This document shows, one piece after another, positions 3,489-48,740 of a DNA stretch of 64,000 nucleotides (position 1 is its first letter; each line of letters begins with the position of its first letter). The stretch is from Candidatus Uhrbacteria bacterium (GTDB lineage Bacteria > Patescibacteriota > Patescibacteriia > UBA9934). Position numbers and translations under genes: made by a program. The notes under the pieces were generated by a model, which did not search any database, had not been told where the DNA came from, and saw only the letters and a list, made by a program, of their open reading frames with translations. The DNA is taken from contig CAWGHH010000004.1 in assembly GCA_963822405.1 (NCBI GenBank), positions 6,226 through 70,225 of the forward strand. The letters are read 5' to 3'.

Positions 3489-3910
3489 AGGACAGTGGCC
3501 ACAATTTTATCTTGTAAAGGAAACATCTCATCAGCGTCTTCCGCCTTTTCATGATCGTAACCGAGCACGTGAAGGATCCCGTGAACCAAGAGATCTGTCA
3601 GTTCAAGTTCAAGATCTTCATCCTCCGCCTGTCTAACTGCCTGTGGAAACGAAATAATGACATCGCCAAGATACCCAGACCTATCCCCGTCCGGCGAACC
3701 GAACGATAAAACATCCGTAATCTTATCCTTCTTTCTATACATCCTGTTTAGTCGACGAATCTCGGCATCGTCAACAAAACTTATAGAAACTATTCCTGTT
3801 GTTTCTTCTCGCAAGGCAACGTCAAGTGCCTTAGCAATCTTAAGAAGTGCGGCCTTAGTAAACCGGCTTCCCTTTGGCACTAAATCTTGTTGGCAATCAA
3901 ACGTGATCAT
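3485..3910 (-). CDS. ybeY: rRNA maturation endoribonuclease YbeY
   Basis: 141 aa. Conserved HGILHVLGYDHE zinc-binding motif of the YbeY/UPF0054 family. Confidence 0.93.
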   Translation of the reverse strand: MITFDCQQDLVPKGSRFTKAALLKIAKALDVALREETTGIVSISFVDDAEIRRLNRMYRKKDKITDVLSFGSPDGDRSGYLGDVIISFPQAVRQAEDEDLELELTDLLVHGILHVLGYDHEKAEDADEMFPLQDKIVATVL

Positions 3911-4884
3911 GGGAGAAGATTTAAACCATTGAGCATCATCTGGAAGGTGGTCAGGAATTCAATGGTTTTTTCATCCCCAAGGTCATAAGTCAAAGTAAAT
4001 ACATTACTACCTCCGTCAACATAAGCAATCCGCTGATCCCGACGAGCCATTGCTAGCAAACCCTCAGTGGTATATGTGGTCTCTAGTTGTTGAGAATTTT
4101 CGTTCGGCACGTTTTGCTGATACCAAGTTTCTAAACTCTGCGTGGAATCTTTTGGTGTAACAGTAATAATAATAGCGGCAGTAGTTGGAGAACGGAAAGT
4201 TACCTTAGCAGTTGTCGAGTCTGCTACTGGCGTCCAAGCAGACGGGTAATAAATAGTAAACGGCAGATCGGTGCCCTGGAATACTCGAACCGCGCCGGTA
4301 TCGAGCAGTGTCAACGGAGCGGGACCGTTCGGATTGTACCGGTGGAATACCTCATTCCCGTCCAAGAACGTATCGCCATCTGTATCTGGATTTCGGTAAT
4401 CTGTCCCGTATAAAAGTTCCTCAATATCAGTCAAACCATCCGAGTCAGTATCCTTACCAGGCTGAGGCTCTAAAACCACCGGAATCGGTGTCGGAGTTGG
4501 TTCAGGAATTGGTTCAGGAACAGGTGTCGGAGCAACTACCGGGACCGGCATGAAGTAGAGATAATAAACCGTTCCCGCGCTGCCAAGTGCCAGGACAAAA
4601 AGAAGCAGAAATAAGAAAAGTAATACTCTAAACTTCTTTTTTGGCGGTGGAGTTATCGTGGCGGGCTTTGGAGGAATTGGTGCTGGGGCAACTACCGGCA
4701 GAGGGATTGGAGCGGGTACAGGTACCGGCACTGGAATTGGCACCACGGAGCCCGGCACGGGCACCGTGGACGACAAAGCCTTCCCCACAAACTCTTTTGG
4801 CATGACATGAATAACCATGTCGTCAGTTTTTATTGACGGCACCAAATTGCTTGTAGGTTGCTGTTCCTCTTTTTTTCCGAACAT
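3907..4884 (-). CDS. Bitopic membrane protein with Pro-rich N-terminus and C-proximal DxDxDG (thrombospondin type-3-like) Ca-binding repeats; paralog 1 of 3
   Basis: 325 aa. PVPVPVPAPIPLPVVAPAPIPP tract, one TM (FRVLLFLFLLLFVLALG), then DTDSDGLTDIEELLYGTDYRNPDTDGDTFLDGNEV and ...YNPNGP. Confidence 0.7.
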   Translation of the reverse strand: MFGKKEEQQPTSNLVPSIKTDDMVIHVMPKEFVGKALSSTVPVPGSVVPIPVPVPVPAPIPLPVVAPAPIPPKPATITPPPKKKFRVLLFLFLLLFVLALGSAGTVYYLYFMPVPVVAPTPVPEPIPEPTPTPIPVVLEPQPGKDTDSDGLTDIEELLYGTDYRNPDTDGDTFLDGNEVFHRYNPNGPAPLTLLDTGAVRVFQGTDLPFTIYYPSAWTPVADSTTAKVTFRSPTTAAIIITVTPKDSTQSLETWYQQNVPNENSQQLETTYTTEGLLAMARRDQRIAYVDGGSNVFTLTYDLGDEKTIEFLTTFQMMLNGLNLLP

Positions 4885-4887: not shown

Positions 4888-5598
4888 TTACGGAGTAGTT
4901 GGTATCTGCAAAAGCTTTCCTGGTCCATTTGGGTTATAGCCGCCCTGAACTTCGGCTCCGTCTAAGAATCCATCGCCGTCAGTATCTGTTCGGAGAGGAT
5001 CAGTACCGTACACTTTGACCTCCTCCCTATCACCAAGGCCGTCTCCGTCCGTATCCGGATTTGTAGACGAAGTTCCAGCTGACAGCTCATCAGCGTTATT
5101 CAATCCGTCGCCGTCACTATCAAGGAATGTTGGATTCAAGTTAGGTGGCGTCAATGTTTCAACTGTTCCAGGAACAGCGGGAACCACAGGCGTTGGAGTT
5201 GCTACCGGAGTCTCAACTGGCGGTACAACCGCCGGGGTCTCCGGAGTTACTACTGGCGCCTGCGTAACAACTGGCGCAACACTAACGCTCATGATCGGCT
5301 TGATCATCAGCGCGTAAGCAGCATATGCGCCCCCAGCAACAACCACTATAGCGACAATGATAATAACAATGTTACGAACTAAATTGGGATGTGGCGTAGA
5401 TTCTGAACCCCCTCCGACTCCCCCTGAAAGGGGGAGAGGCGACGCCACAGACTGCGTCGCAGTAGCCACCGGAGCCACAGCTGGTGCCAACTTTGGCGGA
5501 GGCGCAATAGAAGCGCGCTCAACAATACTTGGCTGAGCAGGTACTGCTGGTGGCTTATCCGTGCCAGCAAAAATGTCTTGTGGTTCTTGTTCGAACAT
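4888..5598 (-). CDS. Bitopic membrane protein with DxDxDG Ca-binding repeats; paralog 2 of 3
   Basis: 236 aa. Pro/Ala-rich N-terminus, TM (IVIIIVAIVVVAGGAYAAYAL), DSDGDGLNNADE...[14 protein letters not shown]...TDTDGDGFLDGAEV...YNPNGPG. Same C-terminal architecture as the 325-aa neighbour. Confidence 0.7.
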   Translation of the reverse strand: MFEQEPQDIFAGTDKPPAVPAQPSIVERASIAPPPKLAPAVAPVATATQSVASPLPLSGGVGGGSESTPHPNLVRNIVIIIVAIVVVAGGAYAAYALMIKPIMSVSVAPVVTQAPVVTPETPAVVPPVETPVATPTPVVPAVPGTVETLTPPNLNPTFLDSDGDGLNNADELSAGTSSTNPDTDGDGLGDREEVKVYGTDPLRTDTDGDGFLDGAEVQGGYNPNGPGKLLQIPTTP

Positions 5599-5619: not shown

Positions 5620-6468
5620 TTATTTCTTTAATGGATCGTGTCCGCTCGCCACCTCCGCCCCATCAGTATACCCGTCACCATCGGTGTCGGGATTTTGGTC
5701 AGAGGTTCCAAGGACGTGCTCTTCAGCTAATGTTAAACCGTCACCGTCAGCATCAGTAGCATTAAAGATATCGTGACAGCCAGCTATAGCATCCGACGGA
5801 AGTGCATCACAGGATGCGGGATTACCGGTAGCTATAGCCGTGTCGAGCAACTTTTTAGCATCACAGAATTCTATAGGCACACCATGACTGGCGCAATCAC
5901 CCAACCTGGCAGCGACCGAGCTAATCACTCCCCTACACGACGCGAGAAGAGTCGAGTCCGAGATAGCATCACACGCTTTGTAGTCTATTTTTGCCGATGC
6001 CATTACCAGTGTAGCGCCATCCGAACAGGCTTGCTTTTCTGCACCCGACAAGACGTCGCAAATCAGAGGGTCTGCATTGTCGGTCGCGATCAATGCCACG
6101 CAATTAGCATATTCACCGTCCGCTAAGCCCTTGCAGCCGTCAACAAATCCAACCTGTCGAGCAGCTCCAGATTGAGAAGTTCCGTTAGCTACCATCTCCT
6201 GCACGGCCGCTGTTTTTTCAACTATCACTTTTTTGGCTGCTGAGCTAGAACGAAGTGCGTTCGCCGCGAATACAACAACAAGCCCAACAACGACCATCAA
6301 TCCCAAAGCAGAAACCGCCATTATTACTAACTGTCGCTTCTTATACCAAGGAGTAAGCTTTGGAGTTGTCTCTTCAGGTGAAAGCGAATAGAACACCGGC
6401 TGAGCGACTGGTGGCTGAACGGGAGGTGTAGAGACAACCTGTGGCTGTTGGGGCGTCAGTTCTTCCAT
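5620..6468 (-). CDS. Bitopic Cys-rich membrane protein with C-terminal DxDxDG Ca-binding repeats; paralog 3 of 3
   Basis: 282 aa. Pro-rich N-terminus, TM ([21 protein letters not shown]), 12 Cys in the ectodomain, C-terminal [12 protein letters not shown]...[15 protein letters not shown]. Confidence 0.7.
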
Positions 6469-6469: not shown

Positions 6470-9400
6470 CTACGGTGAACAATAGTTGATCTTCACGTCA
6501 GAAAGCTTCACCTGTCCAGTACCTCTAAAAGTAACCTGGATCGGAATCTGCTTAGTGGTCGAACCATCACACTTAAAGCCAGAAGGCCAAGGCAATGTCT
6601 GACTAGAACCACCACGAAGTGCCACCGAATCTTGGTGAGCACCAGCAGAATCTGTGCTTAATAATCGGACGGTCACGCCAACAATTGAATTAATTACTCT
6701 TTCGTACGCGGTTCTGAGCTCTACCGCAGTATTTGCAGCGTAAGAATAATCGATACCTGTAGAACTACTATATTCGGTGCCCGTATTGCTCGACCACTGG
6801 TTCATGTGCGAAATAAATTTAGAACTAGAAGACAGCGCGATCGTATAAAGCTCGTAATCATCAAGCTTATCCGCTTGAGTATTTGCCCCCTTTAATGACC
6901 AAGAGGAAGTATTGGCGTTACAATCCCCACTCGTATAAGCGTTTCCAAGACTATCCATTCCACAAAATCCTGATGTAGTTGGGGTAGGCGCTACATCAGA
7001 CAAGAGAACAACTATTTTTCTCACGGTTGGAGAAAGTGGCGAAGTGACAGTGTCAAGTAAAGTTTTCGCCGCCAATAGACCCTGACCAATATCTGAACCG
7101 CTAATTACCGTGTAACCGTTTATTCTGGTTGTCAAAGTTGATTCACCTGTTTGATCAAGCATAGCTGACTGAGAGGTCGTATCGCCGAATTCAACTAATC
7201 CAACGTGCGCCTTAGCCGCCAACTCGCTAAAAAGAGTTGACACCGAACCCTTGAGAGAATCCTGCGTGGAACTTAACTTAGTGGTAGTCGTACCGCCAAA
7301 CACACTTCCCATCGAAGCCGCGCGAGTCGTCACAAAAACCACATACGCGTCAGGAAAAACAATATTGTCCAGAGATATACTACCAGAGAACCTTCCTGAA
7401 ACCGTACATGCAGGAACAGTGATGATGGTTGCGTTTGGTAAAGTTGAGGTCGAAGCTGCATCGTATGAATATAAATCTACACTCGAGCTTGGACGAGAAC
7501 CGGGCTGATTAGCTGTCATGAGTAGACTCGAATCAGAAAGTGATAATGGACAAGAGGAAGCGCATGATGCTGAACATTTAGGCTTCACACATTCGTAACT
7601 GAGACCAGCGGACTGGTCCTCACAATCAGCAACGTCTCCATAATAATGAGATAAAGTGATGTAGCTAGCCGTACACTTCTTTCCATTTCTCGGACCTCCG
7701 TTACAAACGCCGACATCGCTGCAAGTCGAACCGGCATCCACGACCGTAGTTGTCACGCTAGAAGACCTGATTAAGAGACATTTTGTCGGAGTCTTTGGCA
7801 ATGTTCCAGTGAACGCAGGACAGAATTCGCCAAAACTATTGCAGGAAGAATTGCCACCATCAAGATTATAGGCCGCGCATACAAATTGATTATTGCTGTT
7901 TTGTACACACTTGACCTTACCGCCAGCATTTTTGATAGCACCTGTAGCTTGACCGCAACTAGTGTCACCAAAGCCACTGCAAGTTTGTGTTGTAGCTATG
8001 CCACAGTCAAACGAATCACTAACCGTTGTAACTTGATGAGAGCTAGTTATCAGCTGCTGACCCAATGAGCTACAAGTGCCTGAAGTCGTATCTGTTTCTG
8101 CGTCGTAGAAGGTGTAGGGAACGTCAGTACCGTCGCAATATTCAGTCCCGTTCTTCACGCCGTCGCCACAGAAAGCGCCAGATGAAACCACATTTCGACA
8201 AGTAGTCGAACAGGCGCTACAGGTTGAGCCGTAAGACGAACTGCATGATCCGCCGTTTTGTACGCCAAGGTCACATTCTTCGGCAACTGGGTTCAAGGCA
8301 CCGTCGCCACAGACGTTCAACTTACAAGAAGAGGTACAGGCATCAGTGTCGTTCAAATTTCCATCGTCGCAGGTTTCGGCTCCCTCAATTTTTCCGTTTC
8401 CACAGGAAGGAAGATTAGTAGCGGAACAGTCAGTCGAAACGGTTGATAGCTGACAGGTTCCCGAACAAGTCTGGAACTTACTTGTAGGGTACATCTGAAC
8501 ACTGCACTTACCGCTCGTGCCACACATGCTATCTATAGTACAAATTTTTCCAAGTTTATCTATATCTCCTTTTTCACAAACCCGAGACGGCACGCACAGT
8601 GCGTCGGAAATGATTTTAACCTCTCCAACCTCACACTGTTCGTCGCTGTCTAGGTGCTTGTCGCCACAGTAAGGTGCAGGTCCAGAGCAATCCCAAGCAC
8701 AAGAAGTAGTGGCGTTAGATTGATAGACGCCATTTATTGCGCCACACGTTCCACCGCCAAAAGCTCTTCGGCCAACAAGAGGCGGCGTATTTCCACAGTC
8801 ACACTTTTCACTACCGGCCAACGAACCATCGCCGCAAGAAAAGCCGCTAGCCCTGGTACAATCCGCACCACAGAATCCATATGAGCCGTTCTTTGAACCA
8901 TCATCGCACTGCTCTATACCGTCCTTCACACCGTTACCACAAGTAGCGGCAACACAAGCTGCCTGCGTGTTATCCACAAAACCAGTACAAGAAGAATTAC
9001 AAATCTGTTTCCGGAAACCATCCATTATTCCGTCAGCGTTCCCGTCACAGGCCACTTCAGTCCCGCCAATCGAACCAACCTCGCAAACTTCTCCAGAACC
9101 AATTACGCCATCGCCACAGGTTGTCGAAGTGCCGAGAACCGTGTTCTGACAAACGTCGCCGGTGCTGAATCCACCAGTCGAACTATTTGCTCGACCAACA
9201 GTGATCTGCACGCCGTCTTGCAAGCCATCAGCATCAATCGAATTCGCCCAAGCCCCAGCAAATTCTAGATCAGCGTTAATCAACGTCGAGCTGTTTCCGT
9301 TCGCCAAGTACTGATAAACATGAGAACCAGCTGGACAAGTGTATGTGCCTTTAGTGGTGTCTACGCAAGTTGTCTTGTCATAACTAACAAGCGAGCTACC

Positions 9401-11074
9401 AACAACTCCACAGCCCGCAAAAGAATTCAATGGATCGGCCGGTAATTCTTTTGTACCAAGCGCACCACCAAGTATATCTGCCCAGCTTGGCCAAGTACTA
9501 GCGGCTACGTTTCTGACAAATGTACCAGCGGCTAATTCAGGAACGATTGGCGAACAGGATTCACCAAGCGGACATTCGGCACTTGTAGAACAAAGCTTTG
9601 AACGCGTTCCCGAGCAAACGCTATTTTCAGTGCTATAAGTTTTTACAGCCGAACGAATATCCGTCAGATCAGACAGGCGACGTACATCACGACGCACCTT
9701 TGCCTTAGTAGAAAGACAAACCGCACCAGGAGCGGCCGAAACACAATCAGCATCTGACGAACAGGTCTTATCCGTCAATGTTCCGTTAGCCAAACAGACT
9801 GTGTCATTTCCAAGATCTATGGCAAAGGAAATATTTCCAAGCATTAAATCAAATATTTTTTGAGCCGAGGCACTTGCTCCGTCGTTATACGATAAAACGT
9901 AAATATTGGAGTATAGCTTTCCGCCGCTATAATTAGAGGCTGAGACATAAACTGTTCGACCATCACGAACTGCCTCAAAACCGTCTACAGTTGTGTTTAC
10001 CGGACTACCCTTGAAGTTCTGCGCGTCATACCAAGCACGCGGCGAAAGGTAGCCAGGGTTGCTGACAATTCTTACGCCAATAGCATCACCAGAGTTATCA
10101 CCGATTTCAAACAAATACTGCTTAAGAATGTTCGTCGTTCCGCCTACTGGTGCCCGAACCGGCGTCACCGAAGGCAAGTCGTCAGTCAGGCCGACAGCTC
10201 CCTGATCTCGACAGAAATACGTAGAGAAATTCATCCAGCCATTTCCCTCTGAAGCCAATCCTTGAGCTCCACCAGTAGCATTGTCCTGCCATGGGAATTT
10301 AGACAATGTTGGCCAAGGATTTTCACAAAGAAGGGCCGTAACCTGAGCCGATCCCTTAGTCTTTTTATCTTTTGTTCCGCCAAGTGTATCCGCAGTGATA
10401 ATGGCCTCGGCCAGAATAGTTGTCTGACCGTTCTTACCAACAGTAGCGATACTCGCGGTGCTGTGATCAACACTGCTCTGTAGGGCAGTAAATAAAGCAG
10501 CATCACCGCTCACCCACTTGTCATAATCCCAAGCGTACACGTTTACAATCGGCACAATTTCTTGCGGGCCAGTAGCGGAATGAGAAACCGCCTTCGCTAC
10601 AAAGTTATGCATCTGATCTCCACGAGTAAAGAGATATGGACTGGTTTTATCAGTGTCTGAAATCTGAACCGCATCGAGAGCACAAAGTGATGGGCCAGTA
10701 GTGAAAGTAGAGGAAGTGACACCGCCCAAAGCAACGCCAGATGCCGCAGCTATTCCGGTTACTGACGAGTCGTTCACGTTCGTGTCACCCTCGACGACTA
10801 AGGTGTACTTAGCATTTGGCTCAAGTGCTTTTGCGTACTTCAAGTAAACTTTGTAAGTGCCATCATCCTGTGCAACCTGCGAGTATCCAGTCACCGGCAA
10901 CAAACACTTGGCGCCAACATTCGGCGCAGCTGAGGCAGACGCGCCCATGAAGAACCGAACGATCGAGTTTTTGACTAACGCGAAGAATCCCTTTGGATCA
11001 TGCGAAAGGGCAACCTGATAGCCACTTGGGCAAGTCATGTTCGGAGATACTGGTTCGAGCTGGCCCAGGACCAA
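6470..11074 (-). CDS. Giant (>=1534 aa) secreted Cys-rich repeat protein with C-terminal vWA-like domain; start uncertain (may be fused to the upstream giant ORF)
   Basis: Long ORF. Multiple C-x-CGDG/CGNG...E-CDDG...C repeats (e.g. [29 protein letters not shown]; [28 protein letters not shown]) of the Myxococcus-type cysteine-rich-repeat kind. C-terminal region resembles a vWA fold (AYVVFVTT...[10 protein letters not shown]). The 5' end overlaps the upstream ORF by about 77 to 100 nt in another frame and the tracked start is TTG. Confidence 0.7.
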
Positions 11075-14000
11075 CCGGAGCGCCGCCAGTCTCCAAGCTC
11101 AAATACATGTGATTTGTTTCAACTGTAGTAGCACCAACCACACTTGTTGTTGTAAAAGATTCTGTGTTCATCTTCTGCGTAAAGATAGCGTAGATAGCCG
11201 GGTTTCTACATGACGTAGAAGACGCAGTTGGGAACAAAGTAGCAGTTGGCCTTGGCATGCAGCAGTGCGCCGAACCAACTCCGTAAAGCGAAGGATTTGT
11301 ACAGCTAGCATCAGACGTGGCCACGCAAGAAAGAGAAAGATCGGCTGTAGTAGAAAGACCGGACGAATCTTCAGTCACTTGCACGGTAGCTAGAGCCTTC
11401 TTGGTTGTTCCATCCACCTCGAACACTGCACCATCAGAAATCACCGCAGTTTGCAGAGGATCGATTCTGCCGTCACCGGCTACGCCAACTTCACAAGCTG
11501 GATATTCGCCCACTCCAGCAAACCCGTCACCACAGAAAGATGCTTCCGTGTAAGCCGTGGAGGATCCCTCAAATAGACAGCGACTAGAACAGCCATCGCC
11601 GCTTACTTGGCTGCTATCATCACAGTCTTCAAAGACAGGACTGACGTCCCCATCGCCACAACCCTGCGCCTCCGTACCACCTTCATGCAAACAAGAAGAC
11701 GAACAGCCATCGCCGTTTACCACGTTCGAATCGTCACAGCTCTCAGCTGGAGCATCAACTCGACCATCGCCACAAACAGCCCCACCAATAGAAGCTAAAG
11801 TTGGCGTACCTTCGTTTGTACAGTTAGAAGAACAGCCGTCACCGTTTCTAGCGTTCCCGTCATCACATTCTTCACCGGCTTTAGTAGTAGCGTTTCGAGC
11901 AATGTCGTTGTTTCCGCAGGTTGCACCAACAGATCTAGAACCTTCGGCCTGACATTTACTAGAACAGCCGTCACCGTCAACCCCATTATGGTCATCACAA
12001 TCTTCCGCTAGATCGATCGTTCCGTTTCCACACATTGGAACAATAGTACCTTCACGTAAACACGAGGCCGAACAGCCATCGCCGCTTGCTACATTACCGT
12101 CTTCGCATTCTTCACCAGCAGTCGCGTCAAGCCGACCGTCGCCGCAAATAGCACGGTAGGCCACGCTGCCACCGGCAGTACATGAAGCTGTACAGGCGGA
12201 AGGAACTGAAGATGGGGACGTGTCCTGTAACTTTCCACCCAACCATTCAGCAACTACCGTTGAAGCATTACCATCAATGTTCTTGTCTACGATCGGGTTC
12301 GCCCAAGACCAAGAATATGAGAATCCGGTGAGTCTCTGACCAGACTGAGAACAGCTATCAGCCTCTCCGTATGCAGTGCTAGAGAATGTTGCCCTATCCC
12401 CAATCGATTTAGCTAATACACTAGCCGGGGAAATAGAAACTCTATTCACAGCACAAGCACTAGCATCTTCTCGAGCCCGGAAAATCCAAGAATAATCGCC
12501 ACCGTCATTTGTTCTGATTAATGGCACGCCACTCATACTCTTAACCGAGCCTGAGACAATTACCTTGTAAAAAGTGCTCGGATTCAAAGTGACTGTGGAC
12601 AAGGAGAAACCAGTACAATCGCCGGAAATACCAGTAACAGTGATACATTTAGCATTTGGGTTGGCAACTTCGCTAGTCGAAGAACAGAGTTCATTAGCAC
12701 AAGAGAACAAGCGAACAGCACCAGCCATTTCAACAGTCTGTGGCTTCATTGGAATGTTGAAACTCGCCCCGATCTGAGCGTTCATGCAAGCAGAATCACA
12801 ATCCGGCCACACACCCGTGACGTACGGATCTGTAAATTTAATGGTCAAATCACCAGCGCCCGAAGTGGTAGTGGTTCCAACAGTTGCTTTCACCGGAGTC
12901 TGGCCCTCAGCTAAAGCTTCAGCTGTAGCGCAAGAACTATTGCCACCAACACAAGATGGATTAGCCGTGCTATTAAAACCAGCAAAACTTGGGTTCATGC
13001 TCCACGCCCAGGTCACTGAGGCTGGATCAACCACTACACATCCAGAGGTTGGCAAGGCCGAGAAACTCTGCGTAGCATTCTTTGTCGTAAGCGAGGCTTT
13101 AGACGGAGAAACGCGAGCGCTATCAATTACACATGAACCGGCGTCAGTCTTAGTTAAGAATGTCCATTGAACATCATTCGGAAGAGCTATCCCGTCAGCC
13201 GACTGCGCATCAGTGGTGACAGTCACTCGATAGGTTGTGCCGGTGGCAAACACTGAGCCCGGCTTAAAAGTGAACGAGCTAGCGGTAGTTTGAACTGATC
13301 CGGTTACTGAAACCGCCGTAGAACACGGGTTAGATCCACCACCAGAACAACGCTCAACTTTCACCGCGCTGCCAAGCGTCGCTTGATTCATTGGGACAGT
13401 GAACTCCGCATAAACAACCGCGTTCACACAAACGGTATCTGTGAACTTAATGTTCGGCACAGAAGAAACAACAGCCTGTGAACATTCAGAAACAATTCGC
13501 GGAACCTTTGGCACAGATCCAGAAGAGAAACTCCAGGCGTAGCCACCACCCACCGCGCCAAGAGATACTGCCGGCGAGGAGACCGAGAATGGCACGTCAT
13601 TTCCCTTTACGCCGGCCGCGTTTACCAGACGAACGTTTCCTGATTGCGCCGCCGGAGGGACTACTGCTTTTACTTCAGTGTTACTCCATGAGCTGATGAC
13701 AGAAGTGACGCTCGACGAAAAAGTAACCGCTCCTTTTGTGCTTCCAAAATGGTCGCCCACCATTTTAACGACGTCTCCCGAAACACCAGTGCCAGGAATA
13801 ATGCCACACACATTTGGAGCATCATCCGTGGTCGATATAGTGAATGGAATAGTATTCGAATTCTGACCTCCAGCTGTAGTCATTGAAATAGTGTAAGCAC
13901 CAGGAAGCAAAGCAGTTCCCGCAGTACTGCTACCAGGAACAATAAATCTAACTGAAGTTGGGCTCCATGGGTTTACGGTACCGCAAGCCGCCGGGAAGTC

Positions 14001-16136
14001 TAAGCTAGCAATACCAATATCACCCGTGGCTGTATTCTTAAATTTAACCGTACCTTTAGCTGTGCCAAAATTGGCGCCTTCTAAACTGACGTATCGGCCA
14101 ATACCGCCCTGTCCAGGGTTTATAGATAGAAGCGAAGGAGCAGGAGTATTGGTTCCTGCGGTACCACCGGCTGAAGGAGGAATAGTCGATCCTGGCGTAG
14201 TGCCACCGGGAGGCGTGGTTCCGCTCGGGGGTGTAGTTCCGCCAGCTGAAGAACCTGCAGCGGCCGAAGTAAACCGCAAGCTAATCGAATTTGAAGAAAC
14301 CCCAGTTCCAGAAACTACTCGAACGCCGAATAATCCGTCACGCGTAGAAAGCACCGGCACAACAACCTGGGCTGAAGTGTCGCCCCACACTGGATATGAA
14401 GAACCGGTTTGAGCATTACCGAATGCAATAGTCGAGGCATTCACGCCCGACGGAGTTCTGTTCGCCCCGAATCCAGCGCCGATCAAAGTCAGCGAATCAC
14501 CAGCCTTAGCGCTCATGGCTGAAAGGCTACAAAGGTTAGGATGAATCACCGCGTCAACCACGAAGTTAGCAATCAGTGGACCTCTAACGTCACCCGTAGC
14601 ATCACGGCCAAGATCATCAGTTGCGTCAGCTCGAACAATTGAAATTGGACCGTTACCGGTGCCAGCAGGCACAACCACAATTACCTGGCGATCAGTCCAA
14701 CCTCCGTCACATGGCGCAAGTTGCGCCTCGATTGGAGCGCCGGAAGTAGCGAAAAATACTTTTCCTGGCGTAGCTCCAAAACCGTTACCAGAAATAGTTA
14801 CGTAAGTTCCAGGCGCGCCAGAAAGAGGAGAAACAGCTCTGATCACCGTCATGGCCTTACAAGTACCATTAACACAAGAGCCGGATTGGCAGTCAGTTGA
14901 AGCAGTACAGACAGAACCATCACACGCACCACAGTAATTAATGTTGGTCGGATCTCCGCCACAATCAATTCCAGTTTCGCCACTGCCAGAATCTAGAATG
15001 TTATTTTGACAACTTGCTGGCGACAACATAACAGAAACCGAATCCTCGGCCGTGTTCCCGGCCAGGTCAGTAATCGTCGACGAAAGATTAATAGTGTTGC
15101 CCGCATCAATATTGCTCGTATCCCATGAAGTACTGATAGTCACATTTTTCGGATCAGTTCCGCTGGCTGGCACTTCGTCAAAGCTCACGCTGCCAGCTAA
15201 GAATGTAGCGCTTGCCACCCCAACGTCGTCCGTTCCGATCACCTGCACATTCTGTGAACTATTCGCAGCGATTCGTTGTCCAGAAGTAGGGTCAGTTAAT
15301 CTGGCAGTTGGTGCTGTTTCGTCAATGATCGTCCCAGTTGTAAACGTGCCGGTACATGGACGGCTAGTAGGACAGGTCAACGCAGCCGCAGAAGTATTCT
15401 TAATGGCAGTAGTTAAAGTAACAGTGAACTGTGTGCTAGCGTCGAAACATCTAGTCACGGAACCAGTGGAACAAGGCGTAGTTGGCTTAAACGTGATCAC
15501 GTTCCCAGAAACGGAAGGCGTGCCATCAATAACCGCGCCGGTAAGTGTATTTTTTACTGTGAATGCCCCAGCGATGCTTGCTGGATCAACATTCTTTGAG
15601 AATGTAACCCGAACTTGAGGATTACGAATAGTGATTTCTCCGGCAGGTTTTACGCCAGTCACTACGAATGCACTACCAGAGCCTCCGCCAAGCGCCGAAC
15701 CTCCGCCGGCACCACCCCCACCACCAGTGCCACCGCTCCCGCCGGCTCCAGTCGCGCCCAAGATAGAGGACATAACAAAAGACACAATAGACCAGGACAT
15801 CAAGATAATCATGAGGCCAATTCCACCACCAATCAAAATCTTTTTAGCTTTCGCGACATTCTCTTCGTTTCCAGCGGCCGTCATCCAAACAAAACCACCG
15901 TAAAGAACAATCACCACCGCCACAACACCAAGCAAAGAAATTCCAGTTCTAATCAAGCGCGCCACGATGAGTCTAGGATCTTCGCTGCCCAAGCCAGCTG
16001 ACTGCCCCACCACATCAAGCCCGCCCTGGACATCCGCCGACTGGGCTAAAGCGATCATCGGCAAAGCGAACGGCAAGGCCGTACTCGCCATGACGAGTGC
16101 TCCGAGGACTAGATGTTTTAAGGGCTTGATGTTCAC
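10998..16136 (-). CDS. Giant (1712 aa) cell-surface protein: signal peptide + 2-TM hairpin anchor, Gly-rich linker, Ig-like and IPT/TIG-like domains, Thr/Pro linker, six Cys-rich CGDG...CDDGN...GDGCS repeats
   Basis: N-terminus MNIKPLKHLVLGALVMASTALPFALPMIALA-QS (AxA-type cleavage site). TM1 ISLLGVVAVVIVLYGGFVWMTAAGNEENVAKAKKILI, TM2 GGGIGLMIILMSWSIVSFVM, then a GGSGGTGGGGGAGGG linker. IPT/TIG-like segments (SGAPGTYVTISGNGFG; GQGGIGRYVSLEGANFG; GVSGDVVKMVGDHFG). C-terminal repeats such as ICGDGRLDATAGEECEDGNVASGDGCSASC, six copies. Confidence 0.85.
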   Translation of the reverse strand: MNIKPLKHLVLGALVMASTALPFALPMIALAQSADVQGGLDVVGQSAGLGSEDPRLIVARLIRTGISLLGVVAVVIVLYGGFVWMTAAGNEENVAKAKKILIGGGIGLMIILMSWSIVSFVMSSILGATGAGGSGGTGGGGGAGGGSALGGGSGSAFVVTGVKPAGEITIRNPQVRVTFSKNVDPASIAGAFTVKNTLTGAVIDGTPSVSGNVITFKPTTPCSTGSVTRCFDASTQFTVTLTTAIKNTSAAALTCPTSRPCTGTFTTGTIIDETAPTARLTDPTSGQRIAANSSQNVQVIGTDDVGVASATFLAGSVSFDEVPASGTDPKNVTISTSWDTSNIDAGNTINLSSTITDLAGNTAEDSVSVMLSPASCQNNILDSGSGETGIDCGGDPTNINYCGACDGSVCTASTDCQSGSCVNGTCKAMTVIRAVSPLSGAPGTYVTISGNGFGATPGKVFFATSGAPIEAQLAPCDGGWTDRQVIVVVPAGTGNGPISIVRADATDDLGRDATGDVRGPLIANFVVDAVIHPNLCSLSAMSAKAGDSLTLIGAGFGANRTPSGVNASTIAFGNAQTGSSYPVWGDTSAQVVVPVLSTRDGLFGVRVVSGTGVSSNSISLRFTSAAAGSSAGGTTPPSGTTPPGGTTPGSTIPPSAGGTAGTNTPAPSLLSINPGQGGIGRYVSLEGANFGTAKGTVKFKNTATGDIGIASLDFPAACGTVNPWSPTSVRFIVPGSSTAGTALLPGAYTISMTTAGGQNSNTIPFTISTTDDAPNVCGIIPGTGVSGDVVKMVGDHFGSTKGAVTFSSSVTSVISSWSNTEVKAVVPPAAQSGNVRLVNAAGVKGNDVPFSVSSPAVSLGAVGGGYAWSFSSGSVPKVPRIVSECSQAVVSSVPNIKFTDTVCVNAVVYAEFTVPMNQATLGSAVKVERCSGGGSNPCSTAVSVTGSVQTTASSFTFKPGSVFATGTTYRVTVTTDAQSADGIALPNDVQWTFLTKTDAGSCVIDSARVSPSKASLTTKNATQSFSALPTSGCVVVDPASVTWAWSMNPSFAGFNSTANPSCVGGNSSCATAEALAEGQTPVKATVGTTTTSGAGDLTIKFTDPYVTGVWPDCDSACMNAQIGASFNIPMKPQTVEMAGAVRLFSCANELCSSTSEVANPNAKCITVTGISGDCTGFSLSTVTLNPSTFYKVIVSGSVKSMSGVPLIRTNDGGDYSWIFRAREDASACAVNRVSISPASVLAKSIGDRATFSSTAYGEADSCSQSGQRLTGFSYSWSWANPIVDKNIDGNASTVVAEWLGGKLQDTSPSSVPSACTASCTAGGSVAYRAICGDGRLDATAGEECEDGNVASGDGCSASCLREGTIVPMCGNGTIDLAEDCDDHNGVDGDGCSSKCQAEGSRSVGATCGNNDIARNATTKAGEECDDGNARNGDGCSSNCTNEGTPTLASIGGAVCGDGRVDAPAESCDDSNVVNGDGCSSSCLHEGGTEAQGCGDGDVSPVFEDCDDSSQVSGDGCSSRCLFEGSSTAYTEASFCGDGFAGVGEYPACEVGVAGDGRIDPLQTAVISDGAVFEVDGTTKKALATVQVTEDSSGLSTTADLSLSCVATSDASCTNPSLYGVGSAHCCMPRPTATLFPTASSTSCRNPAIYAIFTQKMNTESFTTTSVVGATTVETNHMYLSLETGGAPVGPGPARTSISEHDLPKWLSGCPFA

Positions 16137-16145
16137 AATAGAAGA

Positions 16146-17936
16146 TTAAAAGAGGACGCAGGCAGAAGCCGACGAAACTCCGTTGCAACAGTAAGGGGAA
16201 GAGGCAGTAACACCACAAACACCACCCGTCGCATCCGGTCCAGCGCCTGGTACATAACAATTCTGATACTCGTTCAAAAGTCCACTCGTGACCGTCGAGC
16301 CATATTCGTAAGTCTTGCCGTCAACTGACTGCAGGAACGTACCGTGGCTTATTTTCACAAGCGTCTGAGCGGGAATCTGAGAACCAGAAGTCACTAACTC
16401 GCCATTACTCGTTAAGTATGAAGTGCTTGGCGAATACCACATTTCATGCGAAGTGTTGGTTGATAATTCCTTATTAGACAAACTAATCGTGTCTTGTGAA
16501 ATGGTCGAGGTCATTAAAACGCCATCAAAAGTCACCAGCACTGGCTGATCAAGTGGCACATTCTCCTCAGAAATATTCGGCGAGATAGAAGTTATACTTG
16601 GCCCCTTAAGCGCAATGTCACCAGTGGTCGAAAAGCCCCAGGCGAAGCTGTCTCCGGCCGTTCCGTCATGATTACCGTCTAACGAGTTACCAGCCATGTC
16701 GACAACCCCGTCATATGGGAAGATATCAGCCTGCGGAGGATTCGTGGTGGTAGTCGCGCCTCTAACAGTTGCTGTCAGAGTACTGCTTCCCGGAAGACAG
16801 ACGATTGTTTCACCGCAAGAATTAGTTCCGCATGGACTGTCAGAATGGAACGTAACTGATGTATAGCCGTTGGAAATTTCATACGTTCCAGTCACCGGAG
16901 TAGCACCAGCAGTAATGGCGATATTTGAAAATCCCCCAGCCTGAGCGTGTTGACCGGAAGCTGACGTAGGATCAACTGGTTCAGAAAAAGTAGCTTGCAC
17001 TACAATGTTTCGAGCAAACGTACCAGCATTTGCCGGCGTCACGCTCACGATAGTAGGAGGCGTGAGATCAAGAACGGTACCAGTTTCAAATGACCATTTG
17101 TAACCACCGCTATATGAACCAGCAAAGATTTTGTTTCCGCTGGCATTTTTAATATCAGCAGTCAGTTGCACCGTGTACTGCACTTTACTGGTTGGCGAAC
17201 CTAAATAGACGGCCGGCTTAAAGACAAAAGTCCTGTGATCATCAGTCGAGCTGATCGTCACATCTGTCAAAGCTCCTGGCGCACCAGACGCCGTAGGAAA
17301 AATCTTAACCGAGCCTACCGTGACCGTAGCTGGATCAATCGCTTCCTTAAAAGTAAGCATCACTTTAGCGTTCCTCGCTACGTCTGTTTGATTACGTGTT
17401 GGGTAGTGATCACGAATCGGCCCGGAACCAAGCGCGCCAGATAGACTCTCTACGGAAACTCCCCCATTACCGCCGCCACCAGTACCGCCATTACCACCGC
17501 CAGTACCACCGGTGATAGCGTTTATCACGAATGTTGTAATCCCGTATGCGCTCAGCGTAATAACAATTCCGACCGTAGCTTGAATTAAAATATTCTTAGC
17601 CTTAACAACCTTTTTGTCATCCCCACCGGCCGTCATCCAGATAACTCCAGCGTAGATTGTCAAAATAAGAAAAACAACTCCCAACAATCCTAGGAATATG
17701 CTGATTATTCGACCGATGATTGTAGGAAGATCAGCTCCCCCAAGTCCGGCCGTGGCCGCTACCTGCGCTGCTTGATCTGTCTGCGCTAAAACGTGTGGCG
17801 CAGAAAATAAAAAGCCGCCCACAAAAACACCAAGGCCAAGTAAAAGAGAAATCCGCGCCGTTCGGCTCAACATAGTCCCCACTATTTTACCGCAAAAAAA
17901 GAGTCCCCACGTTATTTGCATGGGGACACTTTCCAA
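16146..17936 (-). CDS. Cell-surface protein (596 aa by first ATG; likely start at 17873) with the same signal-peptide/2-TM N-terminal module followed by bacterial Ig-like (Big/SbsA-type) domains
   Basis: MLSRTARISLLLGLGVFVGGFLFSAPHVLA-QT, then IIGRIISIFLGLLGVVFLILTIYAGVIWMTAGGDDKKVVKAKNILIQATVGIVITLSAYGI, then GGTGGGNGGTGGGG. Big-like PTIVSVTPANAGT...VQATFSEPVDP. The N-terminal module is collinear with that of the 1712-aa protein. Confidence 0.85.
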   Translation of the reverse strand: MESVPMQITWGLFFCGKIVGTMLSRTARISLLLGLGVFVGGFLFSAPHVLAQTDQAAQVAATAGLGGADLPTIIGRIISIFLGLLGVVFLILTIYAGVIWMTAGGDDKKVVKAKNILIQATVGIVITLSAYGITTFVINAITGGTGGGNGGTGGGGNGGVSVESLSGALGSGPIRDHYPTRNQTDVARNAKVMLTFKEAIDPATVTVGSVKIFPTASGAPGALTDVTISSTDDHRTFVFKPAVYLGSPTSKVQYTVQLTADIKNASGNKIFAGSYSGGYKWSFETGTVLDLTPPTIVSVTPANAGTFARNIVVQATFSEPVDPTSASGQHAQAGGFSNIAITAGATPVTGTYEISNGYTSVTFHSDSPCGTNSCGETIVCLPGSSTLTATVRGATTTTNPPQADIFPYDGVVDMAGNSLDGNHDGTAGDSFAWGFSTTGDIALKGPSITSISPNISEENVPLDQPVLVTFDGVLMTSTISQDTISLSNKELSTNTSHEMWYSPSTSYLTSNGELVTSGSQIPAQTLVKISHGTFLQSVDGKTYEYGSTVTSGLLNEYQNCYVPGAGPDATGGVCGVTASSPYCCNGVSSASACVLF

Positions 17937-29177: not shown

Positions 29178-29188
29178 TGCCTCGGTTC
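29164..29188. terminator. Bidirectional hairpin terminator spanning the convergent stop codons of topA and the 901-aa ORF
   Basis: aaccgaggc-ttaat-gcctcggtt, a 9-bp stem centred on the overlapping stops. Confidence 0.55.
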
Positions 29189-36554: not shown

Positions 36555-36640
36555 GCCACGGTGGCGGAATGGTATACGCGACGGACTCAAAATCCGTTTC
36601 TCGTAAGGGATTGAGGGTTCGAGTCCCTCCCGTGGTACCA
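36555..36640 (+). tRNA. tRNA-Leu (anticodon CAA), long variable arm, encoded CCA
   Basis: Acceptor gccacgg/ccgtggt, anticodon loop cuCAAaa, extra arm, T-arm gagggttcgagtccctc, 86 nt. Confidence 0.85.
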
Positions 36641-36656
36641 CAGATGGTGTAAATTT

Positions 36657-36733
36657 GGCCGGGTAGCTCAGTCGGTTAGAGCGAAGGACTCATAAGCCTT
36701 AGGTCGTGGGTTCGATTCCCACCCCGGCCACCA
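36657..36733 (+). tRNA. tRNA-Met or tRNA-Ile2 (anticodon CAT), elongator type
   Basis: Acceptor ggccggg/cccggcc with a paired 1-72 base pair, D-arm gctcagtcggttagagc, anticodon loop cuCAUaa, T-arm gtgggttcgattcccac, CCA encoded. Confidence 0.85.
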
Positions 36734-36744
36734 TAAAGAAAACC

Positions 36745-36847
36745 CCATTAAATTCGCCCTGGCGGTGTCGTCTCCTGCGCCCCGGTCTCGCCGTACCATT
36801 AAGTACGTCTCGACCAGTGCTCGTCGACTCCTAGCCAGGACAAATTT
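36745..36847 (+). other. About 100-nt structured spacer between two tRNAs (closing helix ccattaaatt...aatttaatgg, internal GC-rich helices); unassigned, possibly a small RNA or processing element
   Basis: Inverted repeats ccattaaattcgccctggc / gccaggacaaatttaatgg enclose about 65 nt containing further local hairpins (ccgtac-cattaa-gtacg). No coding potential that does not overlap tRNAs. Confidence 0.3.
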
Positions 36848-36917
36848 AATGGAGTTTTCAATTAGCGAATAAGCACTGGCAACTTGCATTTTTCAGTACT
36901 CCCTGCTATCATTTTGT

Positions 36918-36995
36918 CGCGGGATAGAGCAGCCAGGCAGCTCGTCGGGCTCATAACCCGGAGGTCGTCGGTTCAAATCCGACTCCCGCAACCAA
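36918..36995 (+). tRNA. Initiator tRNA-fMet (anticodon CAT)
   Basis: C1-A72 mismatch at the acceptor end (cgcggga/tcccgca) and three consecutive G-C pairs closing the anticodon stem (ggg...ccc), which are the bacterial initiator hallmarks. CCA encoded. Confidence 0.85.
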
Positions 36996-46129: not shown

Positions 46130-47142
46130 CTAAGGGATGATAGATGCTATACAGGCTTGTTGCAAGATATACCCCTCACAATGGTCAAGCATTCCCAAAT
46201 ATGACGAGATATTCGTCGAATTAACCTTCCTCAACATCCGCCTTTTCGTCTTAGTTCTCAGCACCCGGTGGTACGGCCGAGTGACATATCCAAGGAAATC
46301 AATCCCTTGTGATAATTTCCTGACCTCGATTTTTCTAGGATGAAGTTCGAGTCGTCTCTCCCGCCAAAACCAAGCCTCAATCCAGGGAATAAGCTCTTTA
46401 AGCCGATCTCTGTCTTGATCAAGAATAACCGCATCATCGGCAAACCGAATATAGAACCTTTCTCGTAAATCTTCTTTGATAAAATGGTCGAATGCATCCA
46501 TGTAGACATTTGCAAACAATTGACTGGTCAAATTTCCAATCGGCAGTCCAACCATCCGAACGTCTTTTAGTGAACCCCCCCCCCAACCCTGTCATGCAAA
46601 ATCGAAACATGAAAACTACCCACAATCTCCCGGAGTAACGTCATCACGCGCCGGTCCTGAATCTTTTCGTCAAGTAGCCCGAGCAAAATCTCGTGATCCA
46701 CCGAATCAAAAAACCTTCTAATATCAAATTTAAGTGCCCAACAAGAATCCGTCCAATTCTCGCTTGTCTTTCTCACAAAAACCTCAAGCCGCTCCACTGC
46801 GGCATGCGTCCCCTTATCATCCCGACACGAATAACTATCAAAGATAAATGACCGTTCAAAAATCGGTAGCAGAACCCGATAAATAGCGTGATGAACAAGT
46901 CGATCACGAACAGTTGCCTTATTAATTATTCGTGGCTTGGGGTCAAAGACTTTGAACCGATGATACGGCCCATGTCGATAGGTGCCGTTAAACAGTTCTT
47001 CATGCAGTTCAAACACATGATCTTCAAGATTCCGTTCAAACATCTGCACGTCAATTCGCCCACGTTTGCCATCAGCACAAAATTCACGCCATGCGTTAAA
47101 TAGATTCGTCTTACTAACTATCTTTGAAAATATGTCTCTCAT
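46130..47142 (-). CDS. DGR reverse transcriptase (about 335 aa), split by a frameshift in a 10-nt poly-C/G run at 46575..46584
   Basis: RT domains 0-3 in ORF 46567..47142 (NAWREF..., TVRDRLVHHAIYRVLLPIFE, FIFDSYSCRDDKGTHAA, LKFDIRRFFDSVDHEIL). Domains 4-7 in ORF 46130..46555 (GLPIGNLTSQLFANVYM, the DGR-diagnostic [ILV]GxxxSQ motif rather than the group II QGxxxSP; YIRFADDAVIL). No maturase or endonuclease domains. Confidence 0.88.
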
Positions 47143-47476
47143 ACAAGAAGCGCCAGTATTCCAGTTAATTTATGACGAGCTCAAGGCGTTCCATCTCCTC
47201 AGAAAGAAGTTCGATAAAGGTGAACGGTATTCACTTGGCGAAAAAACCGAGCAAACACTACTTGACGTGCTCTTAGAGATCATCAAGGCCGGAACGTCAA
47301 AAAATGAATGGAAAATTGCCGCCATAGACTCCGCCAGTAAGCATCTTGAGGTCACTAAAATTCTCCTAAGACTCGCAAACGACATGGAACAGATTGAGGA
47401 TAAACATTATGAGGAACATCAGGAACGGATCAGCAGGGCGGGAAGAATGCTCGGTGGCTGGCGAAAAGCATCATAA
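47132..47476 (+). CDS. avd: DGR accessory variability determinant (Avd, four-helix-bundle family)
   Basis: About 115 aa from MSLIQEAPVFQLIYDELKAFHLLRKKFDKGERYSLGEKTEQ... to ...RAGRMLGGWRKAS. FPKxEKYxLxxQ-like and C-terminal GRxLGxW motifs as in bAvd. Its start codon overlaps the divergent RT start (atgtctctcat). Confidence 0.8.
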   Translation: MSLIQEAPVFQLIYDELKAFHLLRKKFDKGERYSLGEKTEQTLLDVLLEIIKAGTSKNEWKIAAIDSASKHLEVTKILLRLANDMEQIEDKHYEEHQERISRAGRMLGGWRKAS

Positions 47477-47516
47477 CGCAAACGCCCAGCTCAGCTGGAC
47501 GTTTGAGAGAAAACAG

Positions 47517-47642
47517 TCCCGGCGGAAGACTACCGTGCCGTACTGCGGATTCGCGTCATCGTTCCTGTTGTCGTTCAGCTTCGGCGAACCGTTCCACACC
47601 AGGAGGTACGCGCAGTTCGAGCGGTTCTCACGGTGGACGGAA
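47517..47642 (-). repeat. DGR template repeat (TR), 126 bp
   Basis: 88% identical to 47965..48090. All 12 mismatches have T on the plus strand (A in the minus-sense TR) where the VR has C, G or A. Confidence 0.9.
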
Positions 47643-47960
47643 AGATCTTCTGTATGCCAGACCCCATCTATTTCACCTCAGCTTCCGCACTAGGCGCGAG
47701 GTTGCTGATGAATTTCATTTAGGCCATATCCTAAGAATCTGGCAAGGAGTGTCTCATCTGATCGTACGCTCCCGTGTCTCACAACACGGAATTCTGACGA
47801 TAGCTCGTTTGAGGATTTCGGGGCCGGAGAGGCTTAGTTCTTCGTTCATTACCCTACTCTCAAGATGAGTATATATGAAAATCCTCCAGTCAGCTTGCGC
47901 CGACCGGAGGATCGAGGGTTGATGGCACGAGAAGCACCGAGAACCCAATGACCGAGGACT

Positions 47961-48740
47961 TTACTCCCGGCGGAAGACTACCGCGCCGCACTGCGGATGC
48001 GCGTCATCGTCCCTGAAGCCGTGCAGCTTCGGCGAACCGTACCACACCAGGAGGTACGCGCAGCACGAGCGGTTCCCACGGTGGACGGAACCAGGCAAGT
48101 CCATCACGTGCTCGCCTTCCACCGCCACGTTCTGGCTCTGATGGTGAATCCAGATTGCCAGGCCAACTTCCGCAGTTCCAGGGAAGAAGCCACGCTTCAC
48201 GGCCTCTTCCCGGCACACGCTCGGCTTCTTGCCGCGGTTCACGCGCCCGTCATGCGCCCGGATCCAGTGTGGCTCTGCCGGCGTGATGTCGCGCGGGCTG
48301 TACGGCTCCAGATTGGACACGCCGCAGTCTTTCACGAGAGCCAGCTCGCAGGTCTTCACCAGCCCGTTGACCGGGTAGACGAGGGTCAGGAGCGGGAAGT
48401 CGGGGTCATGCTCGAGGAGCGAGTCCGGGATCTCCGGGATGGTGGCCAAGAAGGCCTCCCAGAGATCCTTGCCCTTAAGCCGCCCGTTGAACTTCAGGTC
48501 GTACAAGCGCTTCGCCTGCGTTACCCGGGTATCGTCCGGCTTGCGGCGGCCCAACTTCTGAAGCGCCTCCTGGAAGGCCTTGGGCAGCTTGTTGCCGGAC
48601 TCGATGATCCGCTGAGCGGACTCGCCGTCCAACTCGTCCAACTTGCTCGTGAGCACCAAGAAGGCGTCCTCCACGAACCGCTTAAGTTGTTTCTTCTGTC
48701 CATCCGTCTGACCAGACGTGATCGCCTTGGGCGTCATCAT
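47961..48740 (-). CDS. DGR target protein (259 aa) with C-terminal variable region
   Basis: GGAGG-N-ATG at 48740. The C-terminal 42 codons coincide with the VR. GC-rich. The N-terminal domain is unassigned. Confidence 0.8.
   Translation of the reverse strand: MMTPKAITSGQTDGQKKQLKRFVEDAFLVLTSKLDELDGESAQRIIESGNKLPKAFQEALQKLGRRKPDDTRVTQAKRLYDLKFNGRLKGKDLWEAFLATIPEIPDSLLEHDPDFPLLTLVYPVNGLVKTCELALVKDCGVSNLEPYSPRDITPAEPHWIRAHDGRVNRGKKPSVCREEAVKRGFFPGTAEVGLAIWIHHQSQNVAVEGEHVMDLPGSVHRGNRSCCAYLLVWYGSPKLHGFRDDDAHPQCGAVVFRRE
47965..48090 (-). repeat. DGR variable repeat (VR) at the 3' end of the target gene
   Basis: Starts 1 nt after the TAA stop (47961..47963) and covers the last 42 codons (...CCAYLLVWYGSPKLHGFRDDDAHPQCGAVVFRRE). 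Confidence 0.9.

Follow-up and report, generated by a model that had tools for sequence, protein, structure and literature searches.

Two adjacent genes on the minus strand of a 64,000-nt stretch of DNA from Candidatus Uhrbacteria bacterium, an uncultured member of the Candidate Phyla Radiation (GCA_963822405.1, contig CAWGHH010000004.1, positions 6,226 to 70,225 of the forward strand; the whole stretch is designated the window), here termed gene 1 and gene 2, encode large proteins with a common N-terminal module composed of a signal peptide, a hairpin of two transmembrane (TM) helices, and a glycine-rich linker. On balance, and with some reservation, we favor the interpretation that they are paralogous modular pilins of the VirB2-like type (PF18895, T4SS_pilin; T4SS, type IV secretion system), which are displayed at the membrane and possibly co-assemble. 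According to this proposal, each protein would be exported by the Sec system and its signal peptide would be removed by signal peptidase I (SPI). The mature form would represent a complete pilin consisting of an external N-terminus, TM1, a short lysine-rich cytoplasmic loop, TM2, and an external C-terminus; at the position where pilins of about 130 aa end, a flexible Gly-rich linker would run on into an ectodomain, which in the case of gene 1 would be a string of Ig-like domains of about 440 aa and in the case of gene 2 an array of about 3,100 aa containing Ig-like, Cys-rich, and possibly VWA domains. In a monoderm cell, the hairpin would keep the ectodomain attached to the cytoplasmic membrane at its outer face and would allow the fusion proteins to enter the same assemblies as short pilins, with the ectodomain located on the filament or at its tip. 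Membrane anchoring and surface display are suggested by the homology of the module in combination with its topology (positive-inside rule and knowledge of VirB2-type pilins), and the hairpin is likely to serve as membrane anchor of the ectodomain. A function beyond that of a generic anchor is indicated by the retention of the pilin core consensus and by the presence of a stand-alone pilin between the two genes in some genomes. The step of polymerization or co-assembly, taken by itself, is a guess by analogy that we make only tentatively.

The N-termini of the two proteins can be aligned without gaps, with 35 identities in 83 residues (42%, E 2e-20, BLASTP). A preliminary description of this DNA had proposed a shared module of signal peptide, hairpin, and Gly-rich linker, and this module is confirmed as real and far beyond chance. 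In a phmmer search of the six-frame open reading frames (ORFs) of the window with either module, only these two genes were detected (E 1e-18 to 1e-20) and the next-best ORF had an E-value above 0.3, so that the search for further module-bearing genes suggested in the preliminary description yielded none within the window. Hydropathy analysis revealed three hydrophobic segments per protein, corresponding to the signal peptide, TM1, and TM2, with a Lys-rich loop between the two TM helices. The predicted cleavage sites ALA↓Q and VLA↓Q, which were assigned by eye, fit the -3/-1 rule. The cleavage site is followed by about 20 polar residues, a long hydrophobic helix ending with WMTA(A/G)G, a loop in which acidic residues precede basic ones (NEENVAKAKK and DDKKVVKAK in the two proteins), a second helix, and the linker with a glycine content of 64-72%. 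The hydropathy profile and the Lys-rich loop fit an N-out/C-out topology. In the AlphaFold2 (AF2) model of the full-length gene 1 protein (pLDDT 86.1), a short helix and a long helical hairpin (H49-80/H86-120) are followed by a disordered linker (residues 122-138) and a beta ectodomain; in a 97-aa model, the hairpin helices comprise H19-51/H56-93. Among the 30-aa blocks of the gene 1 family, conservation is highest in the one with the WMTAGG motif (0.77).

Both proteins match PF18895 with scores (33.9 bits for gene 2 and 31.6 bits for gene 1) above the curated gathering threshold of 26.6 bits, and the isolated N-termini reach 38.6 and 35.2 bits. The core motif of the family (YAGFLWMTAGGD..V.KAK..I..A.IGL) is present in both modules, with G35, G46, and G54 being invariant and M, T, and A residues near-invariant in the module alignment. 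A search with the module alone retrieved 37 proteins with up to 58% sequence identity, of which 36 carry a precomputed PF18895 annotation; they have a length of 108-218 aa and all but one do not exceed 160 aa. When clusters of 50% identity were searched with a profile of the module, 79,378 cluster representatives were detected at E<=0.001, with 30,806 remaining at E<=1e-10, and the single-module proteins among the best 150 matches are nearly all 112-196 aa long. Judged by these matches, the module belongs to a known and very large family of the Patescibacteria. In many database proteins (P0158, P0161, P0229, and others), 2 to 17 PF18895 modules are arranged in tandem within a single polypeptide, for example at least 11 in a protein of 1,775 aa, and such tandem forms also match the TrbC/VirB2 family PF04956 strongly; they could be real tandem pilins or arrays fused by gene calling.

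The resemblance to VirB2 and TrbC postulated in the preliminary description holds at the level of PF18895 and of profile comparisons, whereas a direct match to PF04956 was obtained neither with the two window proteins nor with their isolated N-termini at E<=1. PF04956 is matched by eight of 39 close relatives of the module (best E 8.5e-6) and, at 1e-23, by multi-module relatives (P0229). Eight annotated virB2/trbC genes, each located between virB1 and virB3 on MPF_T plasmids, were used for comparison. The hhalign comparison of the module alignment with these eight sequences gave a probability of 83.6% (E 8.2e-6, score 37.9) over 59 collinear columns covering the pre-TM1 region, TM1, the W-M motif, the loop, and TM2, whereas one reversed and ten column-shuffled decoy alignments reached at most 0.7% and a score of at most 15.9. 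The link of the module to canonical VirB2/TrbC proteins is thus supported by sequence comparison as a remote but specific one, and the above-threshold PF18895 matches together with the collinear hhalign alignment support the reading as VirB2-like pilins. Sub-threshold matches (28.9 and 26.3 bits, E 7e-7 and 4e-6; curated cut-off 40 bits) were found to NCBIfam NF045849, the Mbov_0395 pilin-like conjugal transfer protein of a mycoplasma integrative and conjugative element.

An ordinary hydrophobic hairpin that resembles T4SS pilins by chance or composition would agree with the failure of the window proteins to match PF04956 directly and with the fact that neither two structure searches with the hairpin nor a profile search against PDB sequences yielded a pilin. 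Such a coincidence, however, would leave unexplained the scores above the PF18895 threshold, the collinear similarity to VirB2 with far lower decoys, the PF04956 matches of close relatives, and the identity of up to 58% to stand-alone pilins; it is considered largely refuted and its residual probability is minimal. In the PDB-sequence search with the module alignment, only designer 'Pizza' beta-propellers were matched, and these were rejected as spurious because they resulted from the summation of weak repeat matches to the WMTAGG motif.

The alignment of the modules with stand-alone pilins is collinear; it starts at the short pre-TM1 helix and extends up to the ATG/TGG motif (...ATG(S)G) with which the latter terminate. 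Each window protein is thus composed of a whole pilin plus an extension and does not merely contain a pilin fragment. The core consensus YAGFlWMTAGGd..kv.kAK..iNA.IGL is shared by 79 fusion proteins of about 600 aa, 71 giant fusions, ten intercalated short pilins, and 37 stand-alone pilins. The linker sets in at precisely the position where stand-alone pilins terminate (...ATGSG), and it resembles the ...TGG C-termini of canonical VirB2/TrbC. These features, along with the disorder of the linker in the structural model and a gene for an S26 signal peptidase located four genes upstream of gene 1 and also upstream in two relatives (L001 and L004), would agree with a pro-protein in which proteolysis at the TGG/Gly linker releases a pilin or a secreted ectodomain, comparable to the C-terminal trimming of TrbC/VirB2, whose processing and cyclization have been reported (bioRxiv 10.1101/2022.04.28.489814; PMC13434634). 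We nevertheless regard such processing as very unlikely, as length and sequence of the linker vary within the family, the S26 gene is most simply explained as the housekeeping LepB of a small genome, and a leaving group of 3,100 aa would be costly to synthesize.

Both proteins exceed by far the size of about 110-160 aa usual for stand-alone PF18895 pilins, and their gene models differ from those of the preliminary description, which had assumed proteins of 1712 and 596 aa. Sequence comparison indicates that the 1712-aa ORF is the front half of a single gene 2 encoding about 3,230 aa and not a whole protein. Its last residues constitute the front half of a Big_5 Ig-like domain; the ORF at 6470..11074, which is devoid of a signal peptide, opens with the second half of this domain. 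Since one homologue of 3,154 aa, encoded on an 897-kb JGI contig of a relative, spans both ORFs and matches residues 1-1665 in one frame and residues 1671-2667 in the other, gene 2 is interrupted by a frameshift in the region of 11040-11085. A long homopolymer is lacking in this region, which leaves room for a sequencing or assembly error as well as for a real mutation. Among 80 related loci that were fetched, the counterpart of gene 2 is uninterrupted in 52 (2,837-3,433 aa), is cut by the end of the available DNA in 19, and ends early as in the window in six, the latter corresponding to six of the 58 relatives with sufficient DNA. For gene 1, translation most likely starts at the ATG at position 17873, giving 575 aa, because conservation within the family begins only after the signal peptide. 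The possibility of several assembly frameshifts in the window was considered and rejected: the gene for EF-G runs off the end of the window, that for a class II aminoacyl-tRNA synthetase contains one in-frame TGA, and changes of frame are restricted to a reverse transcriptase gene and the giant gene 2.

The ectodomain of gene 1 is a conserved all-beta string of about 440 aa, which was modeled with a pLDDT of about 95. All eight cysteine residues of the protein belong to the ectodomain and show no variation within the family, in agreement with an extracytoplasmic location. In a Foldseek search, the ectodomain matched best to two S-layer proteins, SbsC and Sap, and to BIg domains of L,D-transpeptidases, with E-values of about 1e-8 and low TM-scores of 0.13-0.16, which is why these matches are taken to reflect generic bacterial Ig-like strings. 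In gene 2, the PF18895 domain is accompanied by Big_5 and Big_7 domains, by five or more Cys-rich DUF4215/TIGR02232 repeats, and by a weak VWA match near the end. The homology between the two genes extends over the first 250 residues or so (33.6% identity, E 1.65e-22, for the giant protein of L001 versus the gene 1 region of the window), a region made up of module, linker, and first Ig-like domain, and the genes are thus paralogues. Other modes of anchoring or assembly were checked and rejected. Sortase-dependent attachment is not indicated, as the C-termini ...SACVLF and ...KINYCSP lack a C-terminal LPXTG motif and LPxxG strings occur only internally (in the two ORFs of gene 2, at aa 1028 and aa 59, respectively). 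The prepilin-peptidase motif of type IV pilins (G↓F/M-T-L-I/V-E) is absent from the first 60 residues, and anchoring as a lipoprotein was likewise discarded.

Homologues of gene 1 form more than 434 clusters, and the best 120 of these are all 552-626 aa long, contain both PF18895 and PF13205, and share about 50% identity or more. In a scan of one genome per species, relatives of gene 1 were detected in at least 564 species-level genomes, which are mostly titled Candidatus Uhrbacteria, Patescibacteria, or Parcubacteria. Many public metagenome-assembled genome records with the pair (L015, L017, L019, and others) are titled 'uncultured Gammaproteobacteria bacterium', which looks like a labeling error. 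In all 77 related loci with downstream DNA, a second gene with a pilin module follows the gene of about 600 aa at its 3' side and in the same orientation; this second gene is giant wherever the downstream DNA is long enough, and in eight loci a complete stand-alone pilin gene (ORFs of 124-190 aa) is located between the two. The pair is always found among housekeeping genes. In the window, it is flanked on one side by hflX, yqeY, hisS, lepB, an LCP protein gene, der, pth, dprA, and topA, and on the other side by genes for three single-pass membrane proteins with thrombospondin type-3 (TSP3) repeats, followed by ybeY, dgkA, ftsA, and ftsZ. This gene order is kept in relatives with 78% and 53% identity (L001 and L004), and the rest of the window consists of ribosomal and other core genes. 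PF18884 (TSP3_bac) was detected in the first two of the three TSP3-repeat proteins, the first of which is syntenic in L001 and L004, and weak NCBIfam matches of the three lead to the myxobacterial cohesion or gliding proteins CglD and MtsD. Based on synteny, the three are probably partners in the same surface-protein cluster.

The main rival to modular pilins is a static envelope scaffold in which the pilin-derived hairpin is a mere two-TM anchor and the Ig-like strings form, together with the TSP3 proteins, an S-layer-like or wall-spanning structure in the absence of any filament or T4SS. The housekeeping setting without a T4SS gene found nearby, the near-universal presence of gene 1 relatives across the Uhrbacteria-type genomes scanned and their invariable pairing in the informative loci, the high conservation of the ectodomain, its structural matches to S-layer proteins, and the calcium-binding TSP3 repeats of the proteins encoded next to the pair all speak for such a scaffold. 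A plain anchor, however, requires hydrophobicity only, whereas in the fusions the complete pilin consensus is retained together with its loop motif and represents the most conserved block of gene 1. Moreover, the insertion of a stand-alone pilin gene between the two genes in eight genomes is not accounted for, and the low TM-scores reduce the significance of the S-layer matches. We consider the scaffold possible if doubtful.

The interpretation as modular pilins also has to accommodate several observations that weigh against it. For steric reasons, it is implausible that all subunits of a helical filament carry an ectodomain of 3,100 aa, and sparse or tip incorporation would be the most that can be expected. 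The gene 1 ectodomain is about 50% identical across species, a degree of conservation that looks more like that of a structural envelope protein than that of a host-specific adhesin. Gene 2 is interrupted in the window, structure searches with the hairpin do not discriminate between pilins and other helical hairpins, and a PF18895 pilus has never been shown experimentally in the literature surveyed. The preliminary description had suggested a search for VirB4/VirB6-like partners; genes for VirB4, VirB6, VirB3, and VirB8 were absent from the 64 kb of the window and from the 10 kb around the pair in L001 and L004, and the arrays containing the closest stand-alone pilins are likewise devoid of VirB4 within 10 kb. 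These arrays comprise six to eight PF18895 genes (L002, 7583-10399; L094, 7657-10396; L095, 6806-11599), and each is preceded by an NTP_transferase gene and a gene for an extracellular solute-binding protein (SBP_bac_1); that of L095 starts with a protein of 586 aa, another long form of PF18895. One relative possesses an array of six short PF18895 genes on the same 874-kb contig as the pair, at a distance of about 200 kb and likewise devoid of VirB4 within 10 kb.

With respect to assembly, pilins were predicted to be anchored in the membrane by two TM helices before polymerization, with the positive charges of the loop directed towards the lumen of the pilus (bioRxiv 10.1101/2022.04.28.489814). 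The TrhA pilin of the H-pilus is cyclic, and its first and last residues are joined at the pilus surface (PMC13031515); a C-terminal extension would therefore be geometrically compatible with an assembled pilus as well. The most far-reaching version of the proposal, a filament or envelope fiber of Uhrbacteria-type Patescibacteria that is composed of VirB2-like pilins, carries both lineage-wide modular pilins inserted or mounted at the tip via their hairpins, and is built by a T4SS-derived machine unrelated to DNA transfer, is speculative and in our opinion unlikely.

Comparison with known systems helps to define what the two proteins have in common with established pilins. Short Patescibacteria pilins (PF18895; Wang et al. 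2023, PMC10633639) share with the window modules the signal peptide, the hairpin, and the WMTAGG/KAK motifs; they have a length of 110-160 aa and are encoded in tandem arrays, often beside virB4, whereas in the window proteins the pilin is extended by a Gly linker plus another 440 residues in gene 1 and about 3,100 in gene 2, and they are encoded by a fixed pair of genes among housekeeping genes, with no T4SS gene found nearby. Canonical VirB2/TrbC/TraA pilins (PF04956; T-, N-, F-, RP4, and H-pili) likewise possess a Sec signal peptide, two TM helices, a positively charged loop, and a mature N-terminal Gln (VirB2 starts with QSAG); their TM1 likewise ends with a W-M motif, and TM2 is followed by a TGG-type motif. 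In contrast to these, the loop of the window modules is seven residues longer, the host is monoderm, the genes are not located beside virB1, virB3, or virB4, and the huge C-terminal extension of the proteins would have to be cleaved off before head-to-tail cyclization could take place. SbsC and Bacillus anthracis Sap, both S-layer proteins, resemble the gene 1 ectodomain in their Ig-like domains, but are attached via SLH or cell-wall-binding domains and not via a membrane hairpin.

Modular type IV pilins provide an established precedent for a domain grafted onto a pilin (Raynaud et al. 2021, PMC8179133). PilB and PilC of Streptococcus sanguinis follow the same design, as a functional or adhesive module is connected by a linker to the C-terminal side of a small pilin that is encoded beside ordinary pilins, and the vWA module of PilB has a possible parallel in the weak VWA match of gene 2. 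This resemblance concerns the design only: modular type IV pilins (IPR012902) belong to an unrelated pilin superfamily with a class III signal peptide and a single N-terminal hydrophobic helix, whereas the signal peptide of the window proteins is of the SPI type and followed by two TM helices, and the machinery involved would be of the T4SS type. If the most far-reaching version of the proposal is true, genes 1 and 2 would be the first 'modular conjugative-type pilins', i.e. the T4SS-pilus counterpart of modular type IV pilins, and a candidate apparatus for the attachment to host cells.

Patescibacteria are unusual among monoderm bacteria in encoding VirB2-like pilins, which are essential in the only species studied by genetics so far. 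To our knowledge, it is not yet known what these pilins build and how the cells attach to their hosts, and a conserved pair of large adhesin-like pilin fusions offers concrete and testable candidates for components of the filament or the cell surface. In Southlakia epibionticum, a T4SS locus encodes six VirB2-like pilins that are divergent in sequence and conserved in structure, and the array is essential (PMC10633639, PMC12857230). In a survey published in 2025, VirB2-like pilins were reported for 1,948 assemblies and 441 arrays, with some assemblies of Uhrbacteria (GTDB class ABY1) containing VirB4 and others not (Table S1); adhesins such as PrgB were not detected in that dataset, and the text makes no mention of fusions (Quinonero-Coronel et al. 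2025, PMC12102498). T4SS pilin genes were also among the most highly expressed unknown genes of Paceibacteria parasitizing methanogens (PMC10936435). These studies treat pilins as small proteins, and full-text searches of the literature returned no description of pilin-ectodomain fusions. The preliminary description had called such a fusion undescribed, which stands for the literature surveyed but not for the databases: the module belongs to a curated family, the pair is widespread, and the fusion is labeled as 'Type IV secretion system pilin/Bacterial Ig-like domain' at JGI and as 'pilin' at NCBI, and 'Ig-like domain-containing protein' is also in use. As far as searched, the architecture has thus been recorded by automatic annotation and a discussion of it was not found. 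As a consequence for genome surveys, those that count PF18895 matches as 'pilins' also count proteins of 600 to 3,400 residues.

Table 1 Coordinates of the two module-bearing genes and of other features in the window (aa numbers refer to the respective protein)
Feature	Position	Strand	Remarks
Gene 1, putative modular pilin, most likely 575 aa from ATG 17873	16146..17873	-	PF18895, 31.6 bits; PF13205 Big_5, 3.5e-24; layout: signal peptide, T4SS_pilin hairpin, Gly linker, Ig-like (Big_5) ectodomain, Cys-rich C-terminus
Gene 1, longest ORF, 596 aa	16146..17936	-	
Gene 1, predicted signal peptide, aa 1-30 (...HVLA↓Q)	17784..17873	-	hydrophobic segment aa 5-30; helix 2-23 in model
Gene 1, pilin module, aa 31-120	17514..17783	-	short helix, TM1, WMTAGGDDKKVVKAK loop, TM2
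Gene 1, Gly-rich linker, aa 121-138, TGGTGGGNGGTGGGGNGG	17460..17513	-	72% Gly; pLDDT about 41
Gene 1, ectodomain	16149..17459	-	all-beta Ig-like string and Cys-rich end; pLDDT about 95
Gene 2, putative giant modular pilin, about 3,230 aa	6470..16136	-	two ORFs: 10998..16136 (1712 aa) and 6470..11074
Gene 2, predicted signal peptide, aa 1-31 (...IALA↓Q)	16044..16136	-	hydrophobic segment aa 8-32; predicted cleavage site
Gene 2, pilin module, aa 32-126	15759..16043	-	EDPRLIVARLIR, TM1, WMTAAGNEENVAKAKK loop, TM2; PF18895, 33.9 bits
Gene 2, Gly-rich linker, aa 127-148	15693..15758	-	64% Gly
Gene 2, frameshift zone	11040..11085	-	splits a Big_5 domain
Three downstream single-pass membrane protein genes	5620..6468, 4888..5598, 3907..4884	-	thrombospondin type-3 (Ca-binding) repeats, Pro-rich stalks
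901-aa ORF between topA and RelA/SpoT gene	29174-31879	-	no Pfam/NCBIfam match
Three tRNA genes just after parA/parB	36555-36991	+	only Rfam matches in window
Class II aminoacyl-tRNA synthetase (PF00152)	40676-42082	-	single in-frame TGA at 41105-41107 (...DGG*TFTHNPF...)
Reverse transcriptase, split into two ORFs	46567..47142 and 46130..46555	-	frame change at G-run
bAvd-like ORF	47066..47476	+	
Template repeat and variable repeat	47517-47642 (template), 47965-48090 (variable)		126 nt, 12 mismatches, all at adenines of minus-strand template
Variable-repeat ORF, repeat at 3' end	47961..48740	-	259 aa, no Pfam match

Apart from the gene pair, the window contains a diversity-generating retroelement at positions 46130-48740, located between the adk/map genes and secY (Table 1). 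A role of this element in the diversification of genes 1 and 2 was considered and rejected, as its variable repeat resides in a different small ORF. The in-frame TGA of the class II aminoacyl-tRNA synthetase gene is probably an assembly point error or a variant and not a recoded codon; TGA serves as a normal stop codon in nine of the 32 ORFs checked. The 901-aa ORF encodes a protein with a highly charged N-terminal half, which is followed by a few hydrophobic stretches.

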